Positions 13,655-34,247 of a stretch of DNA of 34,259 bases are shown in pieces; the stretch's first letter is position 1, and the number at the start of each line of letters is the position of its first letter. The translations under genes and the position numbers were made by a program. The DNA is from an uncultured Clostridia bacterium (lineage in GTDB: Bacteria; Bacillota; Clostridia; Christensenellales; Borkfalkiaceae): the NCBI GenBank assembly GCA_947627125.1, contig CANQUY010000001.1, positions 1-34,259 on the forward strand, in the 5' to 3' direction. The notes beneath the pieces are model-generated. The model had not been told where the DNA came from, ran no database searches, and saw only the letters and a list, made by a program, of their open reading frames with translations.

Positions 13655-14216
13655 GGCGGCGTCATTCAACGCGGGGGACGCAGCGGCGTCATGCTGAGAA
13701 CACGGGCTGTACGCAGTCTACGGCGGTTGGGGCGGCGTCATGCTGAGAACGTGAGCTGTACGCAGTCTACGGAATCTAACCCGAAGCATCTCGCCGCACA
13801 CTCCCGTTTACTTCCCCCGCGAGATTCTTCGGTTCAAGTCCTCGGACTTCGTTCCTATTCCGTTTCTCAGAATGACGCGGGGGCGCGCGGCGGCGTCATT
13901 CAACGCGGGCGGCGTCATGCTGAGAACGTGAGCTGTACGCAGTCTACGGAATCTAACCCGAAGCATCTCGCCGCACACTTTACGGACTTCCCCCGCGAGA
14001 TTCTTCGGTTCAAGTCCTCGGACTTCGTTCCTATTCCGTTTCTCAGAATGACGCGGGGGGCGCGGCGGCGTCATGCTGAGAACGTGAGCTGTACGCAGTC
14101 TACGGAAACTAACCCGAAGCATCTCGCCGCATAGTCCCGTTTACTTCCCCCGCGAGATTCTTCGGTTCAAGTCGTCAGACTTCGTTCCTATTCCGTTTCT
14201 CAGAATGACGCGGGGG
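13655..14216. repeat. Hairpin-repeat array 1, in the order A+ B- A+ B- A+ B- plus truncated A fragments. This is the only array with this polarity.
   Basis: A units lie at 13732-13797, 13909-13974 and 14065-14130 (GCGGCGTCATGCTGAGAA...CCGAAGCATCTCGCCGC). B units in reverse orientation lie at 13814-13883, 13990-14060 and 14147-14216 (CCCCGCGAGATTCTTCGG...TTCTCAGAATGACGCGGGG). Truncated A copies lie at 13655-13727 and 13889-13908. Confidence 0.92.
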
Positions 14217-14253
14217 ACATCTCTCCGCAAAAAAACACTCCAAAAATAAGCCA

Positions 14254-14544
14254 ATGAAGAATTTTTACACATATATCATCACAAATTCAAAACACAGGCC
14301 ATTTTACGTCGGGGTGACAAACGATATCGCAAGACGAATGTATGAGCATAAGCATGAACTCTACGATGGATTCAGCAAACGCTATCATTTGCATCTCCTC
14401 ATGTATGTGGAACATCACGACAACGAACGTGCGGCAATCGAGCGCGAAAAGGCATTAAAGGGCAAGACGAGGGACAAAAAAATCGCTTTGATCGAGAGTA
14501 TCAACCCAAAGTGGGAAGATCTTTCTCCCGAAGAATCGTTTTGA
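14254..14544 (+). CDS. GIY-YIG nuclease superfamily protein (COG2827/UPF0213-type, YhbQ/YazA-like)
   Basis: 96 aa. The sequence FYTYIITNSKHRPFYVGVTNDIARRMYEHK...RYHLHLLMYVEHHDNERAAIEREKALKGKTRDKKIALI follows the canonical small GIY-YIG pattern. Confidence 0.9.
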   Translation: MKNFYTYIITNSKHRPFYVGVTNDIARRMYEHKHELYDGFSKRYHLHLLMYVEHHDNERAAIEREKALKGKTRDKKIALIESINPKWEDLSPEESF

Positions 14545-14566
14545 CAAGGTCGGCCCCCCGTGAGTG

Positions 14567-14864
14567 CCCCCGCGTCATTCTGAGAACGCGAGAAAGAACG
14601 CAGTCCGACGAATTAACCCGAAGAATCTCGCGGGGCGTATCGAATACCATGCGGCGAGATGCTTCGGTACGGCTCTCATTAACTTCGTTCCCACTCCCCT
14701 TCTCAGCATGACGCCGCAACAGCCCCCGTTGACTTCGTTCCCACTCCCCTTCTCAGCATGACGCCGCAACCCCCGCGTCATTCTGAGAACATGAGAAAGA
14801 ACGCAGTCCGATGAACTAACCCGAAGAATCTCGCGGGAACAAACACCATGCGGCATGACGCCGC
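14567..14864. repeat. Hairpin-repeat array 2, in the order B+ A- (partial A-) B+ (collapsed A)
   Basis: B+ units lie at 14567-14635 and 14770-14837. An A- unit lies at 14651-14717. An A- copy lacking its 5' arm lies at 14718-14767, and a collapsed arm pair GCGGCATGACGCCGC lies at 14850-14864. Confidence 0.9.
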
Positions 14865-14890
14865 ACCAACAACTATAAAGAGAAACGACT

Positions 14891-15571
14891 ATGAATTACA
14901 CCGTTTGTGAAAGAAAACTTCTATTCATCGAGGATGATGAAAACTTATTGAGGGAAATGGTTGAATACTTTTCCCACGATAATTCCGTGTTTACGGCATG
15001 CGACGTGGATGAGGCCGTCGGGGTTCTGACCGAAATAGGCAACTTCGACGCAGTCATCTTGGACCTCATCCTCAAAAACAGCATGGGGCTGGAGCTCTTC
15101 GGCGCATTCCCCGAGCTCCCGCCCGTCATCATTCTGTCCTCTTTGGACGGCGAGGACACCATTCTCTCGGGCCTCACCTCGGGGGCGGCAGATTATGTGG
15201 TGAAGCCCTGTTCCATGCGGCTTTTAGAAACGCATATCGCCATGCGCCTCCTGCCCAAGGCGGACGCGGTGGTCACCTTTGGGGCTTTTTCGGTGGACGC
15301 CAACAAGCGCACCGTAAAATACAAAGGCATGGCCATTTCGCTGACGCCGTCCGAGTTCAATATCCTCTTCTTTTTGGTGAAAAACTGCGGAGAGTATTTC
15401 ACCGCAGATGAGATATATGAAAAGATCTGGTGTGCGCCGAGCCTGCGAACGACGACGGTGCGGGCGCATCTCTCGTCCCTCCGCCGAAAGCTGAAAGCGG
15501 CCATGCCCTCGTGCGACGTCATCCGCACGGAATTCAGCAGGGGCTACTGTTTTACGGGAGAAGTGTTATGA
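14891..15571 (+). CDS. OmpR-family response regulator (receiver plus winged-helix DNA-binding domain)
   Basis: Receiver motifs are LLFIEDDENL, DAVILDLIL and VVKP. The C-terminal winged helix reads LTPSEFNILFFLVKNCGEYFTADEIYEKIW...VRAHLSSLRRKL...RGYCF. Confidence 0.9.
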   Translation: MNYTVCERKLLFIEDDENLLREMVEYFSHDNSVFTACDVDEAVGVLTEIGNFDAVILDLILKNSMGLELFGAFPELPPVIILSSLDGEDTILSGLTSGAADYVVKPCSMRLLETHIAMRLLPKADAVVTFGAFSVDANKRTVKYKGMAISLTPSEFNILFFLVKNCGEYFTADEIYEKIWCAPSLRTTTVRAHLSSLRRKLKAAMPSCDVIRTEFSRGYCFTGEVL

Positions 15572-17580
15572 AAAGGAACAATGTGAACGTGCTCATCCTG
15601 ATCGGCGTGTTTGTTCTCTCGTTGACGTTTTCGCTCATTCTCTTGTTTACAAGGCAAAACGCCACGGCGGAGGCGCCCATACGGAAAAAAGATATCTCGG
15701 GCGTTTCGGTGAACGCCGTTTCGATATTCGACGTGAAGGGCGTGATGGAGCTGACGGCGGTGAACTATCTTCCCAATGAATTTGCGGAGCTCAACGCTGT
15801 CGTTTCGGGCGAAAATGACGGCGAAGAGCCTGCAAAGCGGGGGACATACCGATTCTATATCGACACTCTGACAGAGGAAGAATGGGAAAATAAGGCTGAA
15901 TTGGACGGGCTCCTGAAACCTGACGGAAACTGGCATCTCACCATGTATCTCCCGCCCGTCTTTTCCGCATGCAGCGTGTATGTTCAGTACAACAATATTG
16001 ATTACGTCGGCACGATCGACAGGTACAATATCGACTACTATGCCACTTTTGCGGCTTCCTCCGAATTTGACGACGCCGTTTTGCACCAGACGGCGACAAA
16101 GCCCATGTTCATTGATATTCCCATTTCTTCGGATGGGAAATATTCCAAGGAATGCAAAGTCACCATCCATTACGAGGCGGATAACGACAACTTTGTGGGA
16201 TTTTTGGGGCCCGTTCTGATCGGCGAGGACGGGGCGATCCGCCGTGTCGTCAACGGGAACCGCTCGGCCCTCTTGCTCGGCGCGATCCTCGCGGCGGTGA
16301 CGCTCTTATTGTTCCTTCTCATCTGTATTCTGAAACGGTCCTTCTTCTTCATCCCGCAGCTTTTATTCGCCGTCGGGATCTTCTCGGCGCTGTGTTCAAC
16401 ATTCGCGTTCTTCGGGTACACGACCGTACCCTACTTTTTGCGCGGCATCCGACGGTTTTCATTGGGATTCATGCTCTTTGCCTCTGCCATGTATCTTCCC
16501 AAAAAGATCGGGAAAGTCCCCGTTCTCTATCCGATCTGTGCCGTCACCGTCGCCGCAACGGTGCTTGCGTTCCTGTCCCTCTTCTGCACGAGCGTCGCCG
16601 CCTATTTAGCCGTCTGCTCCGCCTACATCGTTTTGGCGGCCATCAGCATCCTTGTCGGCTATGGATGCACCATCCGCGACGTCTACAAAAATAAGCCGCT
16701 GGGACTTCGCCTCAACACGATGATCATCGGCGTTTCGACCATCATGGCCCTGTTTGCCGAATATCCCATCCCCTTCATCACCCTTTCTCCTGCGTTTTGG
16801 CTGTATCTCGTGGAGATCGGCATCACGTTTGTGCTCGGACTGCGCGAATTCGTTTCCGCGGAAGTGCACAACAGGTACCTCACGACCAATCTGGAGCAGG
16901 AAGTTCAGAAACAGACGCAGAGTTTGCAGAACGTCCTCGCCGAACGGGACAAAATTTTGCTGTATGTCAGCCATGACATGAAGAGGACGGTCGTCGGGAT
17001 GAACGATTCTTTGACGGACCTGAGGCAGCATCTTTCGGACCCTGCGCTGGTTCCCAAAGTGGAGTCGCTCTTGCAAAAGAATGCGGAGCTCAAAAAGGAC
17101 TTTGCCGAGATCGGAAAGTACGGCAGGCAAAACTACGTCGCGGAGCAGTCCGAAGAGGTGAACTTAAGTGAAATTGTGCTAAGCGTTACGAACGATCTGC
17201 GCCCCGACTGCGAGGCAAACGGAATTATTTTGACGGTTACAATTCCGGAAATCTTGAACATATACGCCAAAAAAGTGGCTTTGGAGAGCGTGATCCTCAA
17301 TTTAGTTTTAAACGCGATCGAGCACTCGTTCTGTTCCCATCTGACCGTGACCGCCGTCAAGCGCAGGGGCATGTGCCGCCTCGACGTGATCGACGACGGG
17401 CAGGGAATTACGACCGACAAGGACGTCTTTGCGCCGTTTGTTTCGGACCATTTCTCCGAAAACAATTCGGGCCTCGGCCTGTTTTTGGCCAGAAACGCGA
17501 TTGAAACCATGCACGGCGAATTGACCTATGAGCGCAGGGACAATCTCACCATCTTCTCCGCCACCCTCCCGCTTGCTTAA
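15568..17580 (+). CDS. Sensor histidine kinase with an extracytoplasmic domain and seven TM helices (7TMR-DISM-like architecture)
   Basis: The start was chosen at ATG 15568 (MKRNNVNVLILIGVFVL), which overlaps the regulator stop as ATGA. An N-terminal TM is followed by about 240 aa outside the membrane and then seven hydrophobic helices. The H-box is LLYVSHDMKRT, and the ATPase G-box is NNSGLGLFLARNAIETMHGEL. Confidence 0.85.
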   Translation: MKRNNVNVLILIGVFVLSLTFSLILLFTRQNATAEAPIRKKDISGVSVNAVSIFDVKGVMELTAVNYLPNEFAELNAVVSGENDGEEPAKRGTYRFYIDTLTEEEWENKAELDGLLKPDGNWHLTMYLPPVFSACSVYVQYNNIDYVGTIDRYNIDYYATFAASSEFDDAVLHQTATKPMFIDIPISSDGKYSKECKVTIHYEADNDNFVGFLGPVLIGEDGAIRRVVNGNRSALLLGAILAAVTLLLFLLICILKRSFFFIPQLLFAVGIFSALCSTFAFFGYTTVPYFLRGIRRFSLGFMLFASAMYLPKKIGKVPVLYPICAVTVAATVLAFLSLFCTSVAAYLAVCSAYIVLAAISILVGYGCTIRDVYKNKPLGLRLNTMIIGVSTIMALFAEYPIPFITLSPAFWLYLVEIGITFVLGLREFVSAEVHNRYLTTNLEQEVQKQTQSLQNVLAERDKILLYVSHDMKRTVVGMNDSLTDLRQHLSDPALVPKVESLLQKNAELKKDFAEIGKYGRQNYVAEQSEEVNLSEIVLSVTNDLRPDCEANGIILTVTIPEILNIYAKKVALESVILNLVLNAIEHSFCSHLTVTAVKRRGMCRLDVIDDGQGITTDKDVFAPFVSDHFSENNSGLGLFLARNAIETMHGELTYERRDNLTIFSATLPLA

Positions 17581-17617
17581 CGCTTTTGCTCTGATTGGCC
17601 CCTGACGGAAAACAGCT

Positions 17618-18309
17618 CCCGCGTCATTCTGAGAACGCGAGAAAGAACGCAGTCCGACGAATTAACCCGAAGAATCTCGCGGGGGACATAACAATGCGGC
17701 CCCGCGTCATTCTGAGAACGTGAGCAGGACAAGAAAACGGGACTTAACCCGAAGAATCTCGCGGGGGCATAACAGTGCGGCGAGATGCTTCGGTACAGCC
17801 CCCGTTGACTTTGTTGCACTCCCCTTCTCAGCATGACGCCGCTATGGGCTTCCGTACTCAGTGCGGCCCCGCGTCATTCTGAGAACACGAGAAAGAACGT
17901 AGTCCGATGACCTAACCCGAAGAATCTCGCGGGGCTTGTACGGACACTTTGCGGCGAGATGCTTCGGTTCAGCTCCCGTTAACTACGTTTCCACTCCCCT
18001 TCTCAGCATGACGCCGCTATGCGACCCGTACTCAGTGCGGCCCCGCATCATTCTGAGAACGTGAGAAAGAACGCAGTCCGACGACCTAACCCGAAGAATC
18101 TCGCGGGGGGCATAACAGTGCGGCGAGATGCTTCGGTACAGCCCCCGTTGACTTCGTTTATGCTCCCCTTCTCAGCATGACGCCGCTATGGGCTTCCGTA
18201 CTCAGCGCGGCGAGATGCTTCGGTTCAGCCCTCGTTGACTGCGTTCCCACTCCCCTTCTCAGCATGATGCCGCTATGCGACCCGTACTCAGTGCGGCGAG
18301 ATGCTTCGG
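17618..18309. repeat. Hairpin-repeat array 3, in the order B+ B+ A- B+ A- B+ A- A- (partial A-), with a roughly 174-nt composite period
   Basis: B+ units lie at 17618-17685, 17701-17767, 17867-17934 and 18041-18110. A- units lie at 17777-17842, 17951-18017, 18120-18186 and 18207-18273. A lone A- 5' arm lies at 18293-18309. The linkers are conserved (CATAACAGT and TATGGGCTTCCGTACTCAGT). Confidence 0.92.
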
Positions 18310-18319
18310 AACGGCAGGG

Positions 18320-18348
18320 TTGCGCGGGGGCGGAGAATGTGATATAAT
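18320..18348 (+). promoter_or_regulatory. Extended -10 promoter for tag. It is placed so that ATG 18355 would be at or next to the transcript 5' end.
   Basis: TTGCGC (18320-18325), a 17-nt spacer, then TGa-TATAAT (18340-18348). The ATG at 18355 lies 7 nt after the -10 element, and no SD sequence is present. Confidence 0.5.
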
Positions 18349-18354
18349 CAAATT

Positions 18355-18574
18355 ATGGAAAAGAAACGGTGTGATTTCAGCTATTGGACAAAAAATCAGG
18401 TGTCCGAAAAGGTCCTTCTCTATCACGATACGCGCTGGTGCAAGCCCGAACACCGCCTCCGCCGCGGAAACGCATGCGGAAAAGAAGCGGTGCAATTTCG
18501 GGTTCGGGGCGGAACGTCTTTCCTCAAAGTCCGTACTCTACCACGATACGCGGTGGTGCAAGCCCGAACACCGC
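18355..18574 (+). repeat. Tandem duplication (119-nt offset) of the 5' end of tag
   Basis: Copy 1 (18355-18456) encodes MEKKRCDFSYWTKNQVSEKVLLYHDTRWCKPEHR. Copy 2 (18474-18574) encodes (A)EKKRCNFGFGAERLSSKSVLYHDTRWCKPEHR in a different frame. The last 36 nt of the two copies differ at only 2 positions. Confidence 0.85.
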
Positions 18575-19042
18575 GACGGGGAGCTCTTTGCCATGCTCGT
18601 TCTGGAGGGAATGCAGGCAGGTGTCAGCTGGAGTTTGATTTTGGACAAGGAAGAGAACTTCCGAAAAGCGTTCGACGGGTTCGACCCAAGCATTGTGGCG
18701 GCCTATGGCGAGGACAAAATCAAAGCGCTCATGCAAGACAGAGGCATCATCCGCAACCGCAGCAAAATCTGGGCGGCAGTATCGAATGCGCGGGCGTTTC
18801 TCGCGGTACAGGAGGAATTCGGCAGTTTCGACGCCTTTATCTGGAGCTTCACGGGCGGAAATGTGATCGACCATCACCTTTCGGACGGGGCGGAGATGCC
18901 CGCAAGGGACGCGCTTTCGGAAAGGGTCAGTGCGGAGCTCAAGCGGCGCGGGTTCAAATTCGTCGGTCCGACGATTATTTACTCCTATTTACAGGGCATC
19001 GGCGTCATCAACGACCATACGGACGACTGCGATTTCAGGTAG
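18371..19042 (+). CDS. tag: DNA-3-methyladenine glycosylase I
   Basis: YHDTRWCKPEHRDGELFAMLVLEGMQAGVSWSLILDKEENFRKAF...IIRNRSKI...FVGPTIIYSYLQGIGVINDH is the typical Tag signature. The start is uncertain. The conserved region begins near 18479, and the in-frame options are GTG 18371 or ATG 18275 (inside a repeat). The stop is at 19040-19042. Confidence 0.8.
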   Translation: MISAIGQKIRCPKRSFSITIRAGASPNTASAAETHAEKKRCNFGFGAERLSSKSVLYHDTRWCKPEHRDGELFAMLVLEGMQAGVSWSLILDKEENFRKAFDGFDPSIVAAYGEDKIKALMQDRGIIRNRSKIWAAVSNARAFLAVQEEFGSFDAFIWSFTGGNVIDHHLSDGAEMPARDALSERVSAELKRRGFKFVGPTIIYSYLQGIGVINDHTDDCDFR

Positions 19043-19142
19043 GAAAATGCGGCTGGACGGGAGTCGTGGGGGGCCCCTGTCCTCATTCCGAGCCCCGCAA
19101 GGGGCGAGAGAATCCCGCTTTAAGAACGGAAGTCCGTCGGTC

Positions 19143-19487
19143 TATGGGATCCGCTCGCTTCGCTCGGGATGAGGGCTGTAGGGCGTCATGGTGAGCAGCC
19201 CCGCGTCATTCTGAGAACACGAGAAAGAACGAAGTCCGATGACCTAACCCGAAGAATCTCGCGGGGCGTATCGGATACTATGCGGCGAGATGCTTCGGTA
19301 CAGCCCCCGTTAACTGCGTTTATACTCCCCTTCTCAGCATGACGCCGCTATGGGCTTCCGTACTCAGTGCGGCGAGATGAGTTCAGCCCCCGTGGACTTC
19401 GTTCATGCTCCCGTTCTCAGCATGACGCCGCTAGGAGCCGCCGTGCGTTTTATGGGATCCTTCGCTGCGCTCAGGATGAGCGCGGGG
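19143..19487. repeat. Repeat array 4, in the order C+ (degenerate arm) B+ A- A- C+
   Basis: Type-C units (TATGGGATCC-n-TCGCT-n-CGCTC-r-GGATGAG) lie at 19143-19176 and 19451-19487. A B+ unit lies at 19199-19266. A- units lie at 19282-19348 and 19369-19431; the latter has a 5-nt deletion in its 5' arm. Confidence 0.88.
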
Positions 19488-19576
19488 AGCAGGATGAGAG
19501 CGGGAGGCAGGATGAGAGGGAGGCAGGATGAGAGGGAGGCAGGATGAGAGGGAGGCAGGATGAGCGCGCGGGGAGG
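19472..19576 (+). repeat. 16-18-nt microsatellite (CAGGATGAGAGGGAGG-like, six copies) growing out of the 3' end of a type-C repeat
   Basis: CAGGATGAG starts at 19472, 19490, 19508, 19524, 19540 and 19556. Confidence 0.9.
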
Positions 19577-19610
19577 ACAAGGGCTTTTCTCATGAAAAAG
19601 GCATAGAGAA

Positions 19611-19646
19611 ATCCCTCGGCAAAGGAATTTGCCGAGGGATTTTTTT
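19611..19646. terminator. Intrinsic terminator hairpin (strong on the plus strand; also lies 9 nt beyond the GH3 stop on the minus strand)
   Basis: ATCCCTCGGCAAA-ggaa-TTTGCCGAGGGAT forms a 13-bp perfect stem followed by TTTTTT. Confidence 0.7.
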
Positions 19647-19654
19647 GGCGCTTT

Positions 19655-22600
19655 TTACTCTTCCTTGCCCACTTGCGTCAGGGTCGCGTTGGTCAGGAGT
19701 TCAAAGTAGTCCATGTTGCTGCTGGTCGCCTTGTTGTTGTCCTCGATGACTATGGTGTTCGTGCCCTCCTGCAGATGAATGGTCACGATCATCACGCTCT
19801 CCCAGTTGAAGTAGTTGAACGTGCTGTCCGCCTGTTCAAAGACGACGCTGTCGCTCACGGAAACTGCCTGTCCGTTGACGGTGAGTTTGCAAATGCCGTT
19901 GAAAGTGAGTTTTCTGTCGTTGCGGCAGCCGAATCCGATATAGAAGATGGCCTCCGTCGCACGGTCGGAATTCACCGTGAGAGTGAGCGAATAGTCCTTG
20001 CCCGAGATGCCGCCGATGTAATAGCCGCCGCTGGGGTTGTTGGAACCGCCCTCTCTCGCGCTGTGGGCGTCGCCCGTGACGATCATGCTCTCGCATTCAA
20101 AGCGCTGCAACGTTGTTTCACCCTCTGTGGGATACAGGAGAGAATCAAAGGAAAACTTCTGTCCCTGGAATTCGTACTCCCATGCGGTTTCGCCGAAGGA
20201 CGTCGCCGTGGCCTCCTTCTTCACGACCTTTCTGTAGCCTGCGTCCTCGGAGATCTTGGGGATCTTGGTTTCCTTGTACGAACGGCAAGTGGTGCAGTAG
20301 CTGCCCACAACGCCGCCGCTCTCGAGGGTGGGCTCGGTGACGATCTCCCACTGCCCGTAGGAGTGCTTGCTTCCCTCTTCCTTGCCGAATTCGCTCGTCC
20401 AGTCGAGGTGCGCGGCAGAGGCGAGCTTGAGGGCGTCGAAGTTGAGTCCGTTTTTGGCCTTGGAGAGGACGATGACGTTCTCGCCCTTCTTCAGATGGAT
20501 CATGCAGATCTCGTTGTCCTGCCAATCAAAGTACTTCACGCTGCCCGAACGCATGACGGGGAAGGTGTAGTCGATCCCCTCGACCTTCGTGCCGTTGACG
20601 GTGAGGGTGAACATATCCTCCCACGCGTAGGCATTTTCGCGGTGGCCCATGCGGAGGATGAGAACTGCATCCGCGTCGCTGTCCGAGGTAATCTCGAACG
20701 TGCAGGTGGCGCTGCTGACCTTGGACATGTTCTCAATGAACTGTCCGCCGCTGGGGTTGCCGCCCGTCGTGGGACGGCAGGTTTCGGGAGCGTTCGTATT
20801 GAGCGCGGCGCATTCCGCCTCAAAGTTCCATGTGACATAGCCTGCGGGGAGCGAATCGACAAGGTGTCCGGGGCACTTCTGCGCACAGGCGGCGTTGTCG
20901 CAATCGGGATCCTTGCAGAGGCCGCAGACCTCGCAGACGTGGGTGCAGACGTGGCTTTCCGTCCCGAGGCCCTCCCCGGGTTTCTGTTGATAATCCTCTC
21001 CCGCAAAGATGCTCTGCACGAGGGGAACGACCACGAGGGTGATGACGAGGATGATGGCGAGGACGACGGCGCCGAGTGAGGTCGCGAGCACTGTATAGCG
21101 GACCTTGTTGCTCTTGACTTCGCCGTTCGGTTTGAGCCGCTGCCCCTTCTCGTTCATCTTGCCTTCGGCAATGTAGACTTCCCGCCGCTTCCCTGCGAGC
21201 ACGAAGCTGAGAACGAGCATGATGATGCTGATCCCGCTGAGGACGCCGAAGCACGCCATCATGGCGATGAGGGCATGCTGCCACCAGTTGACCACGGGGA
21301 AGATGCGCATGCCGGGCGTGTAGCCCTCCATGGCAAAGCTGTTGGCGAGGACGTAGAGCACGCGGTGGGTGGAACGGCGGATGAGCTGTGCCACCGTTGC
21401 GTTGGTTTCCGCATCGCGGTAGGCCGCAAGGTTGGTAGATTCGTAGAGAATGTTGTCGTTTCCGCCGACGAGGCCGTCCACGACGCCCATGTAGTTGCGC
21501 CATGCGCAGTCGGAGATGACGAAGCCGTCGAAGCCCCATTCATTCCTCAAAACTTCCGTCGTCAGGCCGTAGTGCGCGCCGCTCCACGTCGTGCCGAAAC
21601 GGGTGAAGGAGGACATCATGCCCGTTGCGTGGGCCTCTTCCACCACAGGCTGGAAGGCGAGAAGGTAGATCTCGCGGATGGCCTGTTCGTTGCACCAAAT
21701 GTTGACGCCGTGGCGGTTGGCCTCCTGATCGTTGAGGGCGAAGTGCTTGAGATTCACATAGCCGCCCTTCTCCTGAATGCCCTTGACTTCCTGCGCACAC
21801 ATGATGCCGGAGAGGAAGCCGTCCTCCGAATAATACTCATACGCGCGGCCGCCCCAGATGGTGCGGTGCAGGTTGACGCCCGTGCCGTAGAGGCCCGCAA
21901 CGCCCGTGTGGATCATATCTTCGCCCTTCAGCTGCCCCAAGCGGAGCGCGAGCGCGTCGTTATAGCTCGCGGAGAGCAGGGGCGTGCAGGGGAAGGACAT
22001 GTTGTAGTTATCGGCAGGGCTGGCGTTCTCGTCCGTCAGATAGATTTGGCGGACGCCGAGCGGCCCGTCGAGGCAGGTTTCGCCCATGTAGGTGATGGAA
22101 TCGACGGCGGGCGTCCCGTGATATGCCTTGCCGAGGAAATTGATCTGCTCGTCGAGGGTCATCTGATCGAGAAGGGTTTCCCATGCGGGGTCGTCGAATT
22201 CCTTGCCGCGGAGGTCGATGATGTCAAAGACATGATCTGCGCCGTAAGTGGGCATCTTATCGGACGGGTTGGCCGCGACGGGCTTATCCCAGTCGAGATC
22301 TTTCACCATGGCCTCGTTCAAAGTGAGCGAAAGAGGCTTGGGCCATGTCGTCTGCCAATTGTTTCTCGAGAGATAGACGACGGTGCCGTCCGTCTTGTTT
22401 TGATATTTGTTCCAATCGGTATCTTCAAATTGATTGACGATGTCGTAGCCCGTGGAGGACTTTGCGAACGTCGTCGTGTCCAAAGATTTGTTCTCCCACT
22501 CCCACACGAGGCCGCTGTTGCCTGCGGCGTCCATGCGGTTTGCCGTGCCCGCGGGGGAATATCCCTTCTTCGCGAGAATGTTGTTCACGGCGTCGTGGGC

Positions 22601-24151: not shown

Positions 24152-24177
24152 GAATGATCCTCTCTGATAAAAATTTT

Positions 24178-24205: not shown

Positions 24206-24218
24206 GTTTGGGGGGATA

Positions 24219-28223: not shown

Positions 28224-28342
28224 AAGCTACTTTTTTCCTCCTATCCTTTTTATATCTGATTTTACAGATACTTCCGAAGTTTCCCCCTTTTGAGAACACC
28301 GAAAAATTTTTTGTGAAATTTTTTCCTTGATACCATTTTTTT

Positions 28343-28379
28343 GTTTGTTATTTCATAACAAACTGCCCCCATGGGGGCA
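28343..28379. promoter_or_regulatory. Two adjacent perfect palindromes upstream of the lipoprotein gene (candidate operator plus GC hairpin)
   Basis: GTTTGTTAT-ttc-ATAACAAAC lies at 28343-28363, followed directly by TGCCCCC-at-GGGGGCA at 28364-28379. Confidence 0.4.
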
Positions 28380-28449
28380 CGGACCGCTGCATATTCTTGA
28401 TGAAAGCACATTCACTTTATCACTATTTTTTCATTATGTCAAGCGGTTT

Positions 28450-28560
28450 TTGAAATAATTTTCAATTTTTCGATAATTTTTGACTTTTTATACCTGAAAA
28501 TTTGTGAACTTTCTTGATAAAATCGGACAAAAAGTGAATTTTTGAAAATTAAATTTTCAA
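28450..28560. promoter_or_regulatory. Pair of TTGAAA...TTTCAA palindromes about 92 bp apart in the AT-rich divergent control region
   Basis: TTGAAA-taat-TTTCAA lies at 28450-28465, and TTGAAAATT-a-AATTTTCAA lies at 28542-28560. Confidence 0.4.
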
Positions 28561-28610
28561 TTTTTTGTTATATGATAAAAATGAACAATAAATTTGTCAT
28601 TTCCGCTTTG

Positions 28611-29111
28611 CCGCCCGCTCCGCCCTCATCCCGAACGAAGCGGCCCCGCGTCATTCTGAGAAACGGACGTTGAACGAAGTCCGACGAACTAACCCGAAGA
28701 ATCTCGCGGGGGGCGTATCAGACACTTTGCGGCGAGATACTTCGGTTCAGCTCCCGTTGACTTCGTTTATGCTCCCCTTCTCAGCATGACGCCGCCACCC
28801 AGCCCCGCGTCATTCTGAGAAACGGACGTTGAACGAAGTCCGACGAACTAACCCGAAGAATCTCGCGGGGGCGTGTACGGACACTTTGCGGCGAGATGCT
28901 TCGGTTCAGCTCCCGTTGACTTCGTTTATGCTCCCCTTCTCAGCATGACGCCGCCACCCAGCCCCGCGTCATTCTGAGAAACGGACGTTGAACGAAGTCC
29001 GACAAACTAACCCGAAGAATCTCGCGGGGCGGGTACGGACACTTTGCGGCGAGATGCTTCGGTTCAGCTCCTGTTGACTTTGTTATACTACCCTTCTCAG
29101 CATGACGCCGC
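28611..29111. repeat. Repeat array 5, in the order C- then (B+ A-) x3 as three nearly perfect 159-nt tandem units
   Basis: A C- unit lies at 28611-28643. B+ units lie at 28644-28713, 28803-28871 and 28962-29029. A- units lie at 28729-28795, 28888-28954 and 29046-29111. The conserved linkers are CG(T/G)GTACGGACACTTT and CACCCAG. Confidence 0.93.
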
Positions 29112-29194
29112 CCGACCCTCGCCCCATCCGCTCTGAATGCGTCGTTTTCACAGAAATCTCAGCGTTGTAACAGGAATTTGTGACGGCGAAAACG

Positions 29195-29223
29195 TTTCAC
29201 TTTGCTTTTTTCCGTGTTATAAT
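29195..29223 (+). promoter_or_regulatory. Extended -10 promoter for the ABC transporter operon
   Basis: TGt-TATAAT lies at 29215-29223, with a weak -35 (TTTCAC at 29195-29200, 17-nt spacer). A GGAGAG RBS lies at 29230-29235, before the ATG at 29241. Confidence 0.4.
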
Positions 29224-29240
29224 AATGATGGAGAGCGGTC

Positions 29241-29942: not shown

Positions 29943-29943
29943 A

Positions 29944-31800
29944 ATGAAGACATATTTCAAGACATTTTTCAAGATGTTCAAGCGGCATCTGACGCGGCTG
30001 GTTTCCGTCTTTTTGATGGTGCTCGTCAGCGTCGGGTTCACCGCGGGCATCGGTATGTCCACAGAGAAGATGGGCTTCTCCCTCGACGAGTACTACCGCG
30101 CGACGAACGCGAGCGCTCTCATCGTCAAGAACACGACGGAGAACGGCTTTTCGGACGGGGATATTTCCTATTTCAAGGAGCGTTACGGGGCGGAGAACGT
30201 GCTCGTTGGGACCTCGCTCGAGATCAAGGGCGGCGAAACGGAGAACTCCCTCCCCCTTGAAGGTTTGGGCGAGGGGATCACCCGCCTCTATTTCTTTTCG
30301 GAGGAAGGCCCCGCGTCACTCAAGATCAACCGTCCCGCCGTGCAAAACAACGGCGCAAAGCCGACGGGCAACTTTGAATATTCCGCCTACGAAGAGCGCG
30401 AAACGGAGCAGCTCATCCCCTTTGAAGGGGACCGCATCACCATGCCCGTGAACTTGGGCGGGCTCCTCTCCTTTCACTATGATTTCGTCCTCATGGGGAC
30501 GCTCACAAATCCCCTTCACTTTGCGAAGATGGACGACGTGAGCATGCAGTTTGAGGGGGAGGAGCTTTCGCATATCCTCTACATTTTCAACTGCGCGCCG
30601 CTCGCCGCTCTTCTGCCGAAAAATGACATATATGTCACGATTTCCGACCTTGACGCCCCCCTCTTTTCGGGCGGATACATGGAAAAAGTCAATGCCGAAA
30701 AGGCAGAAATAGAGGAGGCGTTCGACGACGTTGCCGTCCTCACGCTGAAGGAAAATTTCTCCTTCTCCTCCTTCAACGCCTATGGGGAAAAGATCGACGC
30801 CATCGGCTATGTGCTCATGGTGGTCTTTCTCCTCGTGACCTTGCTCGTCGTGCTGTCCACAATGACGCGGCTCCTCGAGGAGGAACGGGCGCAGATCGCG
30901 TGTATGCAGACGCTCGGCTATTCCCCCTTCATGATCTTGAGCAAGTACCTTCTCTTTGCGTTTGTGGGGACGCTCATCGGCGGCTTCGGGGCATACTTCG
31001 CGGGGGAAGGGCTCTCCTATATCATCTACATCAACTTCGATTGGTGCTATGCGCTGCCGCCCTATTCCGCAAAGCCCGCCCCCATCTTCTTCCTCATCTC
31101 GGCGGCCGTGATCGTGTTCTCCACCCTCATTGCGACCTTTGCGGCGGGCATGCACAAGACGCGGGAAGCTCCCGCCGTTCTCCTCCGCCCCCGCACGCCC
31201 AAGGCGGGCAGAAAGGTCATTTTAGAGCGCATTCCCCTGCTCTGGAACCGTCTTTCCTTCAAATATAAGTCCACCATGCGCAACGTCTTGCGCTTCCGCA
31301 TGCGCTTTGCTATGACCGTCGTCGCCGTCATGGCCTCAACGGGGCTCGTCCTCGCGGGGCTGGCCGTCCTCGACTGCTGCCTATTTCAGAATATCGGCAC
31401 AACGGCTATGATCGGCGTTGCCGTCATCGTGCTCATCTTTGCGGCGCTACTGAACGCCGTGGTCATCTATACGCTCACGAATATCAACATCTCCGAGCGG
31501 AACCGCGAGCTCGCGACGCTCATGGTGCTCGGCTATCAGACGCACGAGGTGGACCTCTATATCTACCGCGAGATCTATATCACGAGTGCGATCGGGATCG
31601 CGGCGGGGCTGCCGTTCGGGTGCCTTCTGTGCCTCTTCATCTTCAATCTGCTCGAATTCGGCTCCGTGGCGGGTATCCATTGGTTCATCTGGATCGCCGC
31701 GGCCGCGCTTTCGCTGGTATTTACCTTTATCGTGACGCTCATGCTGAAGCCCAAGATCCAAAAGATCGACATGAACGAATCCCTCAAGGCGATCGAATAG
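29944..31800 (+). CDS. FtsX-family ABC transporter permease (duplicated FtsX module)
   Basis: The start was chosen at ATG 29944 (MKTYFKTFFKMFKRHLTRLVSVFLMVLVSVGF), 1 nt after the ATPase stop. An N-terminal TM is followed by a large extracytoplasmic loop and then multiple TM helices. The sequence ERNRELATLMVLGYQTHEV is typical of FtsX domains. Confidence 0.85.
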   Translation: MKTYFKTFFKMFKRHLTRLVSVFLMVLVSVGFTAGIGMSTEKMGFSLDEYYRATNASALIVKNTTENGFSDGDISYFKERYGAENVLVGTSLEIKGGETENSLPLEGLGEGITRLYFFSEEGPASLKINRPAVQNNGAKPTGNFEYSAYEERETEQLIPFEGDRITMPVNLGGLLSFHYDFVLMGTLTNPLHFAKMDDVSMQFEGEELSHILYIFNCAPLAALLPKNDIYVTISDLDAPLFSGGYMEKVNAEKAEIEEAFDDVAVLTLKENFSFSSFNAYGEKIDAIGYVLMVVFLLVTLLVVLSTMTRLLEEERAQIACMQTLGYSPFMILSKYLLFAFVGTLIGGFGAYFAGEGLSYIIYINFDWCYALPPYSAKPAPIFFLISAAVIVFSTLIATFAAGMHKTREAPAVLLRPRTPKAGRKVILERIPLLWNRLSFKYKSTMRNVLRFRMRFAMTVVAVMASTGLVLAGLAVLDCCLFQNIGTTAMIGVAVIVLIFAALLNAVVIYTLTNINISERNRELATLMVLGYQTHEVDLYIYREIYITSAIGIAAGLPFGCLLCLFIFNLLEFGSVAGIHWFIWIAAAALSLVFTFIVTLMLKPKIQKIDMNESLKAIE

Positions 31801-31829
31801 GGAAGGGTCGATCCCCGCCCCTACCCCCT

Positions 31830-32053
31830 CCCCGCGTCATTCTGAGAAATAGAGTGAGATGAGAGAACGGGAACTAACCCGAAGAATCTCGCGGTGGCAT
31901 ATACGGACGACTGTGCGGCGAGATGAGTACAGCCCTCGCAGACTGCGTTGTACTCCCCTTCTCAGCATGACGCCACGCAAACAGGCTTCCGTGCGTTTTA
32001 TGGGATCCTTCGCTACGCTCAGGATGAGCGCGGGGGCAGGATGAGCGCGGGGG
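31830..32053. repeat. Repeat array 6, in the order B+ A- C+ plus a duplicated C tail
   Basis: A B+ unit lies at 31830-31894 (3' arm degenerate). An A- unit lies at 31915-31974. A C+ unit lies at 31999-32036, followed by a second CAGGATGAGCGCGGGGG at 32037-32053. Confidence 0.88.
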
Positions 32054-32083
32054 CGAATCAATCAAATACGAAAGGAGCAAACT

Positions 32084-33121
32084 ATGGGCATGAATATTGC
32101 ATTTTTCGACGCCAAGGACTATGACATTCCCGCCTTTGAGCGGTACGGAAAGGAAAACGGCATTTCCTTTAAATTTTACGAAACAAAGCTCGACGCCGAC
32201 ACAACGGAACTCGCCCGCGGCTTCGATGGGGTCTGCGTCTTTGTCAACGATACCGTTTCCGCGCCCGTCATCGACAAACTGTACGACATGGGCGTGAAAT
32301 ATATCGCCCTGCGCTGTGCAGGCTACAACAATGTGGACCTCAAACACTGCTTTCAAAAGCTCCACGTCGTCCGCGTCCCCGCCTATTCCCCCTATGCCGT
32401 CGCCGAACACACGATGGCAATGCTCCTCACCTCCGTCCGCCGCATTCACAAGGCGTACAACAGGACGAGGGAATTCAACTTCTCACTGAACGGCCTCACG
32501 GGCTTCGACCTCCACGGCAAGACGGTCGGCGTCGTCGGAACGGGTAAGATCGGCTCCATCTTCATTGATATCTGCAGGGGATTCGGCATGAATATCCTCG
32601 CCTATGACAAATTCCCGCGGCAGGACGCCGATTTCCCCTACGTTTCTCTCGACGAGATCTTTGAAAGGAGCGATATCATCTCCCTGCATCTTCCCCTCTT
32701 CGAGGACACCTATCACCTCATCGACCGCGAGGCCCTCAAAAAGCTCAAGAAAGGGGTCATCATTCTGAATACCTCGCGCGGGGCGCTCATCGATTCGGAG
32801 GCGCTGCTCGAGGGCATCAAACAGCGGATCATCGGCGCGGCCTGCCTCGACGTCTATGAGGAGGAATCGGAGCTCTTTTTCGAGGATTTTTCGGGCCATA
32901 TCATCGCGGACGACACCCTCGCGCGGCTTCTCTCGATGCCCAACGTCATTGTCACGTCCCACCAGGCCTTTCTGACCGAGGAGGCCCTCTCGAACATTGC
33001 CGAAACGACGGTGGAGAACCTCACAGAGCTCCGCGACGGGAAGGTCTGCCGCAACGAACTCTGCTACGACTGCGGCAACATGGAAGAGTGTAAGAAAAAG
33101 AGAAAGGAACGGTGCTTCTGA
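32084..33121 (+). CDS. ldhA: D-isomer-specific 2-hydroxyacid dehydrogenase, probably D-lactate dehydrogenase, with a short Cys-rich C-terminal tail
   Basis: An AAAGGAG RBS lies at 32070-32076. Motifs include VVRVPAYSPYAVAEH, the NAD fold GVVGTGKIGSIF, the catalytic region NTSRGALID, and VIVTSHQAFLT. The tail reads CRNELCYDCGNMEECKKKRKERCF. Confidence 0.8.
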   Translation: MGMNIAFFDAKDYDIPAFERYGKENGISFKFYETKLDADTTELARGFDGVCVFVNDTVSAPVIDKLYDMGVKYIALRCAGYNNVDLKHCFQKLHVVRVPAYSPYAVAEHTMAMLLTSVRRIHKAYNRTREFNFSLNGLTGFDLHGKTVGVVGTGKIGSIFIDICRGFGMNILAYDKFPRQDADFPYVSLDEIFERSDIISLHLPLFEDTYHLIDREALKKLKKGVIILNTSRGALIDSEALLEGIKQRIIGAACLDVYEEESELFFEDFSGHIIADDTLARLLSMPNVIVTSHQAFLTEEALSNIAETTVENLTELRDGKVCRNELCYDCGNMEECKKKRKERCF

Positions 33122-33159
33122 CCGTTCCCCGACAAACTCAAAACATAAAATTTTTGATC

Positions 33160-33187
33160 AAAAGGCGCCCCGAAAGGCGCCTTTTTT
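33160..33187. terminator. Bidirectional intrinsic terminator between the convergent ldhA-like and uL15-like genes
   Basis: AAAAGGCGCC-ccgaaa-GGCGCCTTTTTT. A-runs and T-runs flank both sides. Confidence 0.75.
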
Positions 33188-33213
33188 GCAACATATGTGC
33201 GAAATTTTTGATT

Positions 33214-33930
33214 TTATTTGGAGCGGGTGCGGATGACCTTGCCGCCCGTGAGAAGGATCATCTTGACGGCCTCGATGGAGTAGTCGTCCGCCTCGACGGT
33301 GAGTTTCTTATCGAGGGTGCCGCGGGCCAAAACCTTGATATATGTGACCTTTTTGTAGCCTTGAATGCGCTTTTTGATCTCATCGAGGGTGACCGTTTCG
33401 CCGTCGTTGAAGTACTGCTCGAGAATGTCAACATTGATGATGCCCGTCTTGGTCCTATCGGCAATGCGTGTGGATTCCTCCACCATCGTCGCCGCGATCT
33501 CGTCCTCGAGGATCTTATCGACCTCCGCCGCCTTGACGCTCTGCCGCGTTTCGATATGGATATCTTCCTTCTTGGGCTTGGGTTTGGGCGCGGGAACGAC
33601 TACGGGCTTCGGTTCGGGCTTGGGCTGAGGCTTGGGTTCAGGCTTCGGCTGAGGTTTCGGCTGAGGTTTGGGCTCGGGTTTCGGCTGAGGCTTGGGTTCG
33701 GGCTTGGGCTGAGGCTTGGGTTCGGGTTTCGGCTGAGGCTTGGGTTCAGGCTTCGGCTGAGGAGCAGGCTTCGCTGCGGGGGCGGGTTGTTGGGCTCCCT
33801 TTTTATTGCGCAGGGCAAGATAGAGCAACACGCCCGCCGTGACGATCAAGAGGCCTGTCACCACGCAAATCGCGATCGTCCCGCCGGGGACAAGACCCGC
33901 CAATATGCCAAAAACAAAGCTGTTTGCCAT
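33214..33930 (-). CDS. Second membrane-anchored uL15-like domain protein, with a PKPEPKPQ repeat linker
   Basis: 238 aa. An N-terminal hydrophobic segment (FVFGILAGLVPGGTIAICVVTGLLIVTAGVLLYLAL) is followed by RNKK, then about 100 aa of P/K/E/Q repeats. The C-terminus (IINVDILEQYFNDGETVTLDEIKKRIQGYKKVTYIKVLARGTLDKKLTVEADDYSIEAVKMILLTGGKVI) is paralogous to the 6670-7245 product. Confidence 0.7.
   Translation of the reverse strand: MANSFVFGILAGLVPGGTIAICVVTGLLIVTAGVLLYLALRNKKGAQQPAPAAKPAPQPKPEPKPQPKPEPKPQPKPEPKPQPKPEPKPQPKPQPKPEPKPQPKPEPKPVVVPAPKPKPKKEDIHIETRQSVKAAEVDKILEDEIAATMVEESTRIADRTKTGIINVDILEQYFNDGETVTLDEIKKRIQGYKKVTYIKVLARGTLDKKLTVEADDYSIEAVKMILLTGGKVIRTRSK
33571..33790 (-). repeat. 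In-frame 24-nt tandem repeat encoding (PKPEPKPQ)n
   Basis: GGCTGAGGCTTGGGTTC(A/G)GGCTT(C/G)-type units are reiterated about 8 times on the plus strand. Confidence 0.85.
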
Positions 33931-34096
33931 AATTTTTCCTCCTCAAAGAGTTCTTCTTCGGCTCCATTACAGGGCTATTTCAGTTTCATTTATTTTACCA
34001 CAAAATAGCGCGCGTTGTCAATCGTTTTTTAAAAATTCTTGAGGATGATAGAAATTGGTCTTTCCCCCGCCCCCAAAGCGGAACAGAGTGACGCAG

Positions 34097-34247
34097 CCCC
34101 GCGTCATTCTGAGAAACGGAGAAGGACGAGAGAACGGGGGCTGACCCGAAGAATCTCGCGGGGCGTATGCGGTTTTCTTCGCGGCGAGATGCTTCGGTAG
34201 AGCCCTCGCAGACTTCGTTCATGCTCTCGTTCTCAGCATGACGCCGC
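34097..34247. repeat. Repeat array 7, in the order B+ A- (the array may continue beyond the window end)
   Basis: A B+ unit lies at 34097-34163 and an A- unit at 34181-34247. Confidence 0.88.

Follow-up and report, generated by a model that had tools for sequence, protein, structure and literature searches.

A GIY-YIG nuclease gene flanked by arrays of long-looped hairpin repeats in an uncultured gut Clostridia genome

Results

The window, a stretch of 34,259 nucleotides from an uncultured Clostridia bacterium of the Borkfalkiaceae, carries seven intergenic arrays of a short repeat and, exactly between the first two, a small GIY-YIG nuclease gene (Table 1). A whole-window nhmmer search with a profile built from the units found 30 near-full units of 67-70 nt and about five partial copies. 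All copies are confined to seven intergenic blocks between 13656 and 34247, and nothing to the left of 13656 matched even at E<10. The original prediction had also placed seven arrays in intergenic DNA, with none left of 13.6 kb, and its block coordinates agree with the search within a few bases. It had counted about 15 units of each of two types, A and B, and alignment of the 30 units gives exactly 15 of each, with a mean column identity of 77%. With their linkers the arrays make up about 2.8 kb, or 8% of the window, as had been estimated. The head motif GTCATKCTGAGAA occurs 32 times in the window with at most one mismatch, compared to 0.11 +/- 0.31 expected from 100 dinucleotide-preserving shuffles.

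Table 1. Coordinates and composition of the repeat arrays and the nuclease gene.
Feature	Coordinates	Strand	Description
Array 1	13656..14216		Head fragments, then three A(+)/B(-) dimers, periods 177 and 156 nt
ssn-like gene	14254..14544	+	96-aa single-domain GIY-YIG nuclease; Pfam PF01541, E=2.5e-14, residues 4-76
Array 2	14567..14866		B(+), A(-), partial A(-), B(+), terminal fragment
Array 3	17617..18312		B+ B+ A- B+ A- B+ A- A-, plus a partial copy
Array 4	19134..19577		Degenerate short-form hairpin 19134-19180 (-), then B+ 19199, A- 19281, A- 19368; short-form hairpin 19441-19487 (-), then a 16-nt fragment 5.6 times in tandem, 19472-19564
Array 5	28611..29112		Partial short form, then three near-identical 159-nt B(+)/A(-) dimers
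Array 6	31830..32054		B(+), A(-), short-form hairpin 31989-32035 (-), 17-nt tandem fragment
Array 7	34097..34247		Single B(+)/A(-) dimer

Conserved linkers join the units head-to-head and tail-to-tail, and within one array the units diverge by several percent. The B(+)/A(-) pairing that had been described is correct for arrays 2-7, but array 1 is its mirror image, A(+)/B(-), and there are a few direct neighbors (B+B+ at 17617/17700; A-A- at 18119/18205 and 19281/19368). Composite periods of 176, 157, 174, and 159 nt were found with Tandem Repeats Finder, in agreement with the 156-177 nt given earlier. The same program reported 3.0 copies with 95% identity in array 5, which had been called three nearly perfect copies.

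Array 2 mirrors array 1 across the nuclease gene. The last unit of array 1, a B(-), ends 38 nt before the start codon, and a B(+) begins array 2 at 24 nt past the stop codon; the near-full units of array 2 span 14569-14838, and a fragment continues to about 14866 (nhmmer). Array 3 is located between a histidine kinase gene and tag, and has periods of 174, 83, and 87 nt (Tandem Repeats Finder). Array 4 follows the tag stop codon and precedes a terminator hairpin at 19604-19647. Its full-unit block is 19199-19432 (nhmmer), and its 16-nt tandem fragment bears the CTCATCCTG head. Array 5 (full-unit block 28644-29111, nhmmer) separates two divergent genes and is upstream of both their start codons. 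In array 6 (full-unit block 31830-31974) the 3' arm of the A(-) unit has a deletion of 4 nt, and array 7 ends 12 nt short of the contig end.

The gene between arrays 1 and 2 was overlooked in the original prediction. Pfam found no second domain beside PF01541 in its 96-aa product. Residues Y7, Y18, R28, H32, and E65 are conserved in 30 homologues, with Y7, Y18, and E65 invariant or nearly so. The spacing of these three (11 and 47 residues) is that of Y6, Y17, and E64 in Neisseria meningitidis SsnA, a match in spacing and not an alignment to SsnA. Comparison with homologues of 75-79% identity gave pN of 0.15-0.17 and pS of about 0.94, a sign of strong purifying selection. Among solved structures, UPF0213 proteins are the closest in sequence. 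No NCBIfam model is specific to the protein, the PADLOC defense library gave no match, and the PHROGs matches were to generic GIY-YIG endonucleases only. An identical protein with the same flanking units is present in five independent ENA assemblies (L001-L005); most contigs bearing it are shorter than 2 kb. The number of units in array 2 differs in L001-L004, all of which encode the same protein. For arrays 5-7, looking up the exact proteins of neighboring genes found no record in other strains, probably owing to different start-codon calls.

A typical unit is 67-68 nt long, with 53-55 nt from GTC to C. A units have an ATGCT arm and a GCGGCG outer stem, and B units have an ATTCT arm and a CCCCGCG outer stem. 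Two sets of columns are invariant in the alignment of 30 units: TCAT, at the junction of head and palindrome, and ATCTCGC, 3' of the 3' arm. The G of the GTC head is kept in 28 of the 30 units and the other two have ATC; CGTC followed by AT is found in 28 of 30, and the tail is CTC. Short-form copies have GCTC as the head, and the long-loop units contain a conserved GAACGNAGTC core. The peptide scraps LRMTRG and SQNDA, mentioned in the original prediction, can be read directly from the arms (CTC AGA ATG ACG CGG GG and TCT CAG AAT GAC GCG).

In the fold model, an outer helix of 6-7 bp encloses head and tail and is followed by a 2x2 TC/CT internal loop and an inner 5-bp helix. In the inner helix AT(T/G)CT pairs with AG(A/C)AT; a tandem G.A mismatch and a G-C pair extend it, and it closes a loop of about 35 nt. 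Pairing is found in 95.5% of cells in the proposed structure, compared to 29-58% with one strand slid. Three base pairs switch between A and B with full compensation (GC/CG, CG/GC, UA/GC), while the GTC head, the AT that starts the palindrome, and the C right after the palindrome are nearly invariant. The proposal of two homologous subfamilies alternating in inverted orientation, like the Y and Z REPs of BIMEs, describes a real and covarying pattern. Single-unit folds barely beat shuffled sequences on either strand (z -0.9 to -2.0). The array 5 dimer folded as ssDNA has -33.4 kcal/mol and z=-3.7.

Rfam gave no matches in the whole window at gathering thresholds, and at E<10 in 13600-19700 it gave chance-level matches only, none of them on the unit as such. 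No tRNA or tmRNA was found in the window. The units have no T-tracts and so are not intrinsic terminators. A CRISPR was rejected on inspection, as there are no unique spacers and no cas genes. A hammerhead-like reading of CUGAGAA...GAA, made by eye, was dropped; Rfam gave nothing, and its core appears not to match the hammerhead consensus CUGAnGA. In JGI metagenomes the exact 67-nt pattern had no matches. A relaxed pattern found 60 loci, but just two of these match the unit profile, at about 25 bits compared to 53-67 bits for the full units of the window (nhmmer), so they are not close relatives. The long-loop unit appears to be restricted to the present lineage. Orphan heads and orphan tails were counted as a possible footprint of cleavage; a first version was too noisy, and the stricter version gave 93 and 91, with no asymmetry.

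Similar hairpins accompany homologous genes in many phyla. A set of 80 homologous loci was compiled from Clostridia, Chloroflexota, Cyanobacteria, Bacteroidota, CPR, Acidobacteriota, Proteobacteria, and others. At least one hairpin of the form GTC, 5-nt arm, complementary arm, C lies within 300 nt of the gene in 75 of the 80, which bears out the suggestion that the family is widespread. Across these loci there are 6.2 hairpins per kb near the gene and 0.88 farther away, a sevenfold difference. For the narrower motif CAT-N-CTGA...GAAG-N'-AT, 149 of 225 matches are within 300 nt of the gene. The published search string for Ssn-related motifs (SRM) matches near the gene in just three loci. In three homologues with 46-49% identity (L080 from Dyella, L089, and L049) the flanking hairpins match this string and nearly match NTS, which indirectly supports placing the protein of the window in the Ssn family. 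Arm pairs of ATTCT with ATGCT or ATCCT recur at other loci. Inverted neighbors have different arm types in 86 cases and the same type in 40, and direct neighbors have the same type in 35 and different types in five. Long-loop forms of 45-67 nt are also present in Nitrospina, Dehalococcoidia, Ignavibacteria, and Hormoscilla loci. Half of the loci (40 of 80) have the layout SRM(+)-ssn-SRM(-), or "+-", more than any other; the "-+" layout of the window, in which the heads of the nearest units face the gene, occurs in five. In relatives the gene and its repeats form a cassette in the contexts gyrB-gyrA and hsdM-hsdS, and the context in the window is another one.

Discussion

The gene and its repeats resemble the recently described Ssn/SRM system. 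Ssn proteins (cd10448) include the 94-aa SsnA of N. meningitidis, whose NTS hairpin is CGTCATTCCCGCGMAVGCGGGAATCYRG (Chenal et al. 2025, PMC11893778). Four Ssn homologues bind only ssDNA and cleave it beside their own hairpins; SRMs flank 71% of Ssn homologues, proteins above 150 aa were excluded from the family, and membership calls for hairpin repeats in both the 5' and the 3' 500 bp of the gene, for cd10448 as the best CDD match, and for a blastp match to SsnA (CAX49033.1) with E<1e-10 over 75% or more of its length (PMC11893778). Within an SRM, function depends on the palindrome itself, the three nucleotides GTC ahead of it, and the C directly behind it (PMC11893778). The window has a single-domain GIY-YIG protein of about the same size, 96 aa, with catalytic Tyr/Tyr/Glu residues equivalent by spacing to those of SsnA. 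Oriented hairpin repeats lie in both 500-bp flanks, and what makes them SRM-like is the head, arm, and tail, not a match to the published string. In both systems a (C)GTC head leads into a palindrome whose first bases are AT, a C directly follows the palindrome, and many copies cluster in intergenic DNA around particular genes. There are also differences. The published SRM string, HGTCWYN(0-2)YYVSBRHN(0-5)WNVSBRGN(0-2)RNCYNB, has no match in the window on either strand, while the canonical NTS, used as a control, matches. SRMs are simple hairpins of 20-50 nt, and the units are longer than this. NTS has the arms ATTCCCGC and a loop of 3-5 nt, whereas the units have ATTCT/ATGCT arms followed by tandem G.A, a loop of about 35 nt, an added outer helix, and two strictly alternating arm types. 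The host is a rabbit-gut Clostridia MAG.

The units also share features with the CGTC-tagged REPs (families CGTC-1 to -4, including Neisseria dRS3 and Rickettsia RPE-4/-6), which were reported without a dedicated enzyme (Di Nocera et al. 2013, PMC3733652). In both, a CGTC (or TGTC/CCTC) tag precedes a stem with AT at its start, and the 3' tail is short, 3 nt, reading CTC here and CCA in the family consensus. Inverted dimers, frequent heterodimers, and an intergenic location are common to both. CGTC REPs have perfect stems of 8-9 bp and loops of 4-5 nt, and their clusters were called rare (PMC3733652); in contrast, the units have an interrupted stem (five Watson-Crick pairs, G.A/A.G, G-C) with the long loop, and form long arrays. 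The original prediction had taken the family to be unnamed. This does not hold, since the units bear the head, arm, and tail of CGTC REPs (PMC3733652) and of NTS/SRM (PMC11893778), and a match to an already named family with known function, which it had listed as grounds for refutation, has largely been found.

The units are most likely ssDNA hairpin sites that are bound and cut by the encoded Ssn-type nuclease. From the sequence comparisons we consider it probable that the arrays are lineage-specific, long-looped SRMs/CGTC REPs and the cognate sites of the 14254-14544 nuclease. Based on homology to SsnA, the nuclease would bind the folded forward strand when the DNA is single-stranded, as in incoming transforming or conjugative DNA or in replication and repair intermediates. 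It would cut a few nucleotides 5' of the head, as does N. meningitidis SsnA (PMC11893778), which would place the cut either on the 5' strand within the outer helix or within the linker that joins two heads. The length of the loop is expected to be no obstacle, since the identity of the loop is dispensable and longer loops were accepted in vitro (PMC11893778). As A and B alternate in inverted orientation, both strands would expose a cuttable unit about every 160 nt. Single-stranded DNA crossing the arrays would then be fragmented, and recombination of flanking genes may be modulated. The use of two arm types for inverted neighbors may avoid long perfect palindromes. The number of units in an array differs between strains, which suggests, partly speculatively, that arrays change by unequal recombination or slippage.

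Some observations do not fit well with the units being cognate sites. In the fold model the predicted cleavage site would be hidden by the outer helix. The "-+" layout is rare, the SRM string misses the units, and their size is outside the published range. In N. meningitidis, altering the palindrome sequence while keeping the hairpin abolishes activity (PMC11893778), so recognition in this lineage must have co-evolved with the units, and one enzyme may not serve both A and B arms.

A further possibility, which we regard as doubtful, is that ssn and its hairpin dimers are a self-propagating GIY-YIG counterpart of RAYT/REPIN. Nicks made by Ssn in ssDNA would start the copying of A/B heterodimers to further intergenic positions and let arrays grow, and Ssn would be the dedicated enzyme missing from CGTC REPs (PMC3733652). 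The long-loop, double-helix units would be derived forms carrying an extra internal module, the conserved core. The varied cassette contexts, the strain-variable unit numbers, and the inverted arrangement around ssn in half of the loci are consistent with this idea, an IS-like version of which was already raised as a hypothesis by the authors of PMC11893778. In REPINs, too, one small nuclease-type gene lies between its own inverted repeats, and dimers form long hairpins. For RAYTs, movement of the repeats by the enzyme is established or strongly argued; for Ssn it is not.

Other origins for the arrays are much less probable. Classical REPs and BIMEs, moved by a RAYT (an IS200/IS605-type tyrosine transposase) in E. 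coli and Pseudomonas, also consist of two related palindromic units alternating in orientation in intergenic arrays (PMC2817692, PMC3116915), and the dimer here folds into a long, REPIN-like hairpin. The likeness to E. coli BIMEs seen in the original prediction is sound for organization only, as the GTAG tag and the RAYT transposase are missing from the window. The head is CGTC, no Y1 (HUH) transposase domain was found in the large ORFs of the window, the gene embedded in the arrays encodes a GIY-YIG nuclease, and Di Nocera et al. found no RAYT flanked by CGTC repeats (PMC3733652); movement by a RAYT is therefore highly improbable. Much the same can be said of miniature inverted-repeat elements that descend from a conventional DDE insertion sequence elsewhere in the genome and depend on it for movement. 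The units are short, repeated, and intergenic, with inverted termini (CCCCGCG...CGCGGGG), but neither target-site duplications nor an IS-like transposase was seen in the window. Regular packing with conserved linkers is unlike scattered single insertions, and SRMs beside ssn genes in many phyla have the same conserved head, arm, and tail.

The units might instead act mainly as structured RNA, for example as an mRNA-stabilizing or terminating 3' hairpin, a small RNA, or a ribozyme, with the link to the nuclease secondary. The stem covaries, array 4 is probably transcribed because it precedes the tag terminator, and REPs are known to influence mRNA stability. RNA roles of REPs have also been discussed (PMC3733652). 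We consider this unlikely, since no Rfam family matched in the window and no credible weaker match was found at E<10 in 13600-19700, single-unit folds are marginal, T-tracts are absent, and SsnA did not bind RNA (PMC11893778). Moreover, every array contains units of both orientations, which leaves no one sense linked to transcription, and array 5 precedes the start codons of two divergent genes. An artifact of short-read metagenome assembly, with collapsed or chimeric repeats, is extremely unlikely. The contig does stop just past array 7, and the short contigs carrying the identical protein indicate that the repeats break assemblies, so that the exact unit number per array may be unreliable. 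However, the same junctions between unique sequence and units in five independent assemblies argue against a single-assembly artifact, units within an array are not identical, and analogous arrays are present on contigs of 0.6 Mb (L054) and 3.4 Mb (L027).

Conclusions

The probable Ssn/SRM pairing brings a Gram-positive gut Clostridia lineage into the recently described system. What is new here is the loop insert of about 35 nt, the extra outer helix of 6-7 bp, the Clostridia host, and the invisibility of the units to the SRM string. An SRM repeat can thus reach twice the published size. Because the string misses both the long form and the common short CTGAG/CGAAG arm class, SRM censuses likely undercount both. 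Peptide tails of the LRMT, SQND, and AQDD types in hypothetical-protein annotations are translated SRM arms. The general regularities, namely GTC-head/C-tail hairpins beside most homologues, SRM(+)-ssn-SRM(-) as the commonest layout, and inverted neighbors that differ in arm, bear on the co-evolution of Ssn enzymes with their sites and on which new enzyme/site pairs might be chosen for ssDNA tools.

Repeat units and arrays

The window contains two homologous subfamilies of a hairpin repeat. A profile search of the window found 30 near-full units, 67-70 nt long, together with about five partial copies, all within seven intergenic blocks (arrays 1-7, numbered from left to right) between 13656 and 34247, and no units left of 13656. 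When oriented and aligned, the 30 units divide into 15 of type A (GCGGCG-TC-ATGCT-GAGAA...CCGA-AGCAT-CT-CGCCGC) and 15 of type B (CCCCGCG-TC-ATTCT-GAGAA...CCGA-AGAAT-CT-CGCGGGG), with a mean column identity of 77%. The 13-nt head GTCATKCTGAGAA occurs 32 times in the window, compared with 0.11 expected from shuffles. The arrangement is B(+)/A(-) in arrays 2-7 and its mirror image in array 1. Tandem Repeats Finder gave composite periods of 157-176 nt; in array 5 a 159-nt period is present three times with 95% identity. Together with their linkers, the arrays occupy about 8% of the window. The repeats are thus as described in the original prediction, and a repeat finder, Tandem Repeats Finder and the profile search agree on them.

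Shorter forms are also present. Three short-form hairpins have a CTC head, and head fragments of 16-17 nt form two tandems (Table). On the opposite strand both tandems are repeated CTCATCCTG head-plus-arm pieces of the short-form hairpin. Comparable head-fragment stutters come before complete hairpins in other phyla, for example at the homologous loci L031, L032, and L089. Overall, orphan heads are as frequent as orphan tails (93 versus 91).

Table. Coordinates of features in the window and in homologous loci
Feature	Location	Sequence	Details
ssn-like gene	14254-14544 (+)	window	96-aa ORF
Short-form hairpins	19134-19180, 19441-19487, 31989-32035	window	CTC head
Tandem head fragments	19472-19564	window	CAGGATGAGAGGGAGG x5.6
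Tandem head fragments	32020-32054	window	CAGGATGAGCGCGGGGG x2.1
tag 5' end, apparent tandem duplication	18355-18600	window	offset 118 nt
tag 5'-end copies	18403-18456 and 18521-18574	window	
Surface-type protein	7252-13518 (-)	window	2088 aa
Internal repeats of surface-type protein	7505-9124	window	207-240-nt coding tandem repeats
Paralogous ORFs	6670-7245 (-) and 33214-33930 (-)	window	PF00828
PKPEPKPQ linker repeat	33569-33788	window	12-nt tandem repeat
AT-rich region	28260-28600	window	~340 nt
Cassette (ssn + hairpins) within conserved gene pair	8455-9416	L006	
Cassette (ssn + hairpins) within conserved gene pair	9393-10326	L011	
Cassette (ssn + hairpins) within conserved gene pair	9883-10487	L015	
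Alternating hairpin array with ssn homologue	~4750-5460	L022	Ruminococcaceae MAG CADBCV010000026

The units share a structure that shows covariation. Each has a potential outer helix of 6-7 bp, a 2x2 internal loop (TC/CT), an inner helix of 5 bp lengthened by tandem G.A/A.G and a G-C pair, and a loop of about 35 nt with the conserved core GAACGNAGTC. In the 30-unit alignment 95.5% of cells pair in this structure, compared with 29-58% when one strand is slid. A and B switch completely at three pairs (GC/CG, CG/GC, and UA/GC), and all three switches are compensated, although on the A/B split each amounts in effect to a single event. All 30 units have TCAT where the head meets the palindrome and ATCTCGC behind the 3' arm, and 28 of them keep the G of GTC in the head. 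On either strand, the folds of single units are just slightly better than those of shuffled sequence. A B(+)/A(-) dimer, folded as ssDNA, gives a long hairpin (-33.4 kcal/mol, z=-3.7). The units are neither intrinsic terminators nor tRNA-related.

The ssn-like gene and its homologues

An ORF between arrays 1 and 2, overlooked in the original prediction, encodes a single-domain GIY-YIG nuclease (PF01541, E=2.5e-14) like those of the Ssn (single-strand DNA nuclease) family. The gene is flanked by B units on both sides: B(-) stops 38 nt short of the start codon, and B(+) starts 24 nt past the stop codon. The catalytic Tyr, Tyr, Arg, His, and Glu are conserved in the protein and its homologues, and the gene is under purifying selection (pN 0.10-0.17, pS 0.82-0.95).

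Many homologues of about 90-100 aa were found, the majority on very short contigs, as would result from repeats interrupting the assembly near the gene. Those with 75-79% identity are in rabbit-gut Clostridia MAGs, where the gene lies between gyrB and gyrA and is embedded in related hairpins such as GCGTCATCCTGAACGCAGTGAAGGATCC. A homologue with 57% identity is located in the hsdM-hsdS interval, with 26-nt hairpins (GTCATCCTGAGCnACAGCGAAGGATCT) on either side; further copies of these hairpins are dispersed throughout the locus. The position of the cassette inside otherwise conserved gene pairs suggests that gene and hairpins insert into intergenic spacers as a whole. The contexts seen are gyrB-gyrA in two rabbit-gut Clostridia MAGs and hsdM-hsdS in another lineage.

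Hairpins are associated with ssn-like genes across many phyla. A scan with one genome per species gave 80 loci from Clostridia, Chloroflexota, Cyanobacteria, Bacteroidota, CPR, Acidobacteriota, Nitrospinota, Proteobacteria, and others. The motif CAT-N-CT[GC]A...[GT]AAG-N'-AT occurs 225 times, 149 of them no more than 300 nt from the gene; these 149 are spread over 43 of the loci. Under a more general definition (GTC and a 5-nt arm, then the complementary arm and C), one or more hairpins lie no farther than 300 nt from the gene at 75 of the 80 loci, and the density is 6.2/kb near the gene versus 0.88/kb elsewhere. The arm types are ATTCT (83), ATCCT (54), ATTGC (41), ATTCC (25), ATCCC (20), and ATGCT (17). 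The commonest layout is hairpin(+)-gene-hairpin(-), found at 40 of 80 loci, while the (-)/(+) layout of the window is rarer (5 of 80).

The alternation of A and B is a general habit of this hairpin repeat family, since inverted neighbors more often have different arm types (86) than the same one (40), while direct neighbors usually have the same type (35 versus 5). In L022 an ssn homologue lies inside a regular alternating array of 23-nt (+) and 28-nt (-) hairpins with ATCCT and ATTCT arms, with at least nine units within 300 nt. This array is a short-unit counterpart of the A/B arrays of the window.

Comparison with published systems

Two published repeat classes resemble the units. The original prediction was right about the organization of the units but wrong in suggesting that the family may be unnamed. 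CGTC REPs have a CGTC (or TGTC/CCTC) tag, AT-initial stems, and a 3-nt tail; they form inverted dimers, often heterodimers, lack a dedicated transposase, and include Neisseria dRS3 and Rickettsia RPE-4/-6 (Di Nocera et al. 2013, PMC3733652). SsnA of N. meningitidis, a 94-aa GIY-YIG protein, binds its hairpin repeat NTS (CGTCATTCCCGCGMAVGCGGGAATCYRG) as ssDNA only and cleaves the DNA a few nucleotides upstream of this repeat (Chenal et al. 2025, PMC11893778). The three bases preceding the palindrome govern cleavage, binding depends most on the C that follows the palindrome, and the loop tolerates extensions, its identity being dispensable. The Ssn system lowers transformation by NTS-bearing DNA, and Ssn-related motifs (SRMs) of 20-50 nt flank 71% of Ssn homologues (PMC11893778). 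Chenal et al. likened NTS-ssnA-NTS to IS elements and RAYT/REP/BIME.

The window units bear exactly the critical features of NTS (GTC head, palindrome, and trailing C), and the window protein is equal to SsnA in size and catalytic-residue spacing. In contrast to the published SRM, the units have ATTCT/ATGCT arms followed by tandem G.A, a loop of about 35 nt, and an added outer helix around head and tail. The published search string has no matches in the window and matches near the gene in only three of the 80 loci, which have NTS-like CGTCATTCC...GGAATCCA hairpins. The distance from GTC to the post-palindrome C is 53-55 nt in the window and peaks at 25-26 and 31-37 nt in other loci; long-loop forms of 45-67 nt occur in a few other lineages (Nitrospina, Dehalococcoidia, Ignavibacteria, and Hormoscilla). 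The window's own unit was not found in JGI metagenomes.

Other features of the window

The copy of the tag (3-methyladenine glycosylase I) 5' end that has an ATG (MEKKRCDF...LYHDTRWCKPEHR) is out of frame relative to the remaining gene, and the second copy (EKKRCNF...LYHDTRWCKPEHRDGELF...) is in frame without an obvious ATG. The gene may be disrupted or have an alternative start, or the assembly may be wrong here. The two paralogous ORFs have a C-terminal uL15/L27A-like domain. In the translated right-hand ORF, an N-terminal hydrophobic segment and a long low-complexity linker accompany this domain, an odd architecture for a ribosomal-protein domain. The surface-type protein has eight Listeria-Bacteroides (Flg_new) repeats, and its internal repeats score as apolipoprotein-like helical repeats. 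The strongly AT-rich region, with many T/A runs, lies between the Big_3 gene and array 5, in sharp contrast to the adjoining GC-rich repeats, and is probably a divergent promoter region.

Proposed function

The window likely encodes an Ssn-type nuclease together with its hairpin sites. Other explanations have little probability. A primary function of the units at the RNA level is unlikely, and the units match no Rfam family. It is very improbable that the units are REP/BIME elements of the RAYT type, and just as improbable that they are MITEs derived from a DDE insertion sequence. The other large ORFs of the window (LRR protein, FtsK-like ATPase, 2088-aa surface protein, two-component system, Tag glycosylase, GH3 enzyme, Big_3 protein, ABC/FtsX transporter, and 2-hydroxyacid dehydrogenase) all lack a transposase domain. 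Least probable of all is an assembly artefact. Five independent assemblies carry this gene with matching flanking units, so the arrays are not an accident of one assembly. Exact unit counts call for caution, being derived from short reads. Unit number varies at the strain level.

The downstream biology of this Ssn-type system is proposed with less confidence than its identity, and binding, cleavage position, and biological effect are extrapolated from SsnA (PMC11893778). The units would be ssDNA hairpin sites of the encoded nuclease. Where the DNA is single-stranded, the enzyme would bind a folded forward-strand unit and cut immediately 5' of the head. With A and B in alternating orientation, each strand would offer a cutting site about every 160 nt, and recombination of ssDNA spanning these intergenic regions may thus be reduced or reshaped. 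Different arm types in inverted neighbors would leave fewer perfect long palindromes. Spread of the units by Ssn is a speculative possibility.

The main value of these results is that they broaden the range of forms and hosts known for SRMs, expose a gap in what the published search string detects, and account for recurrent junk peptide tails in annotations.
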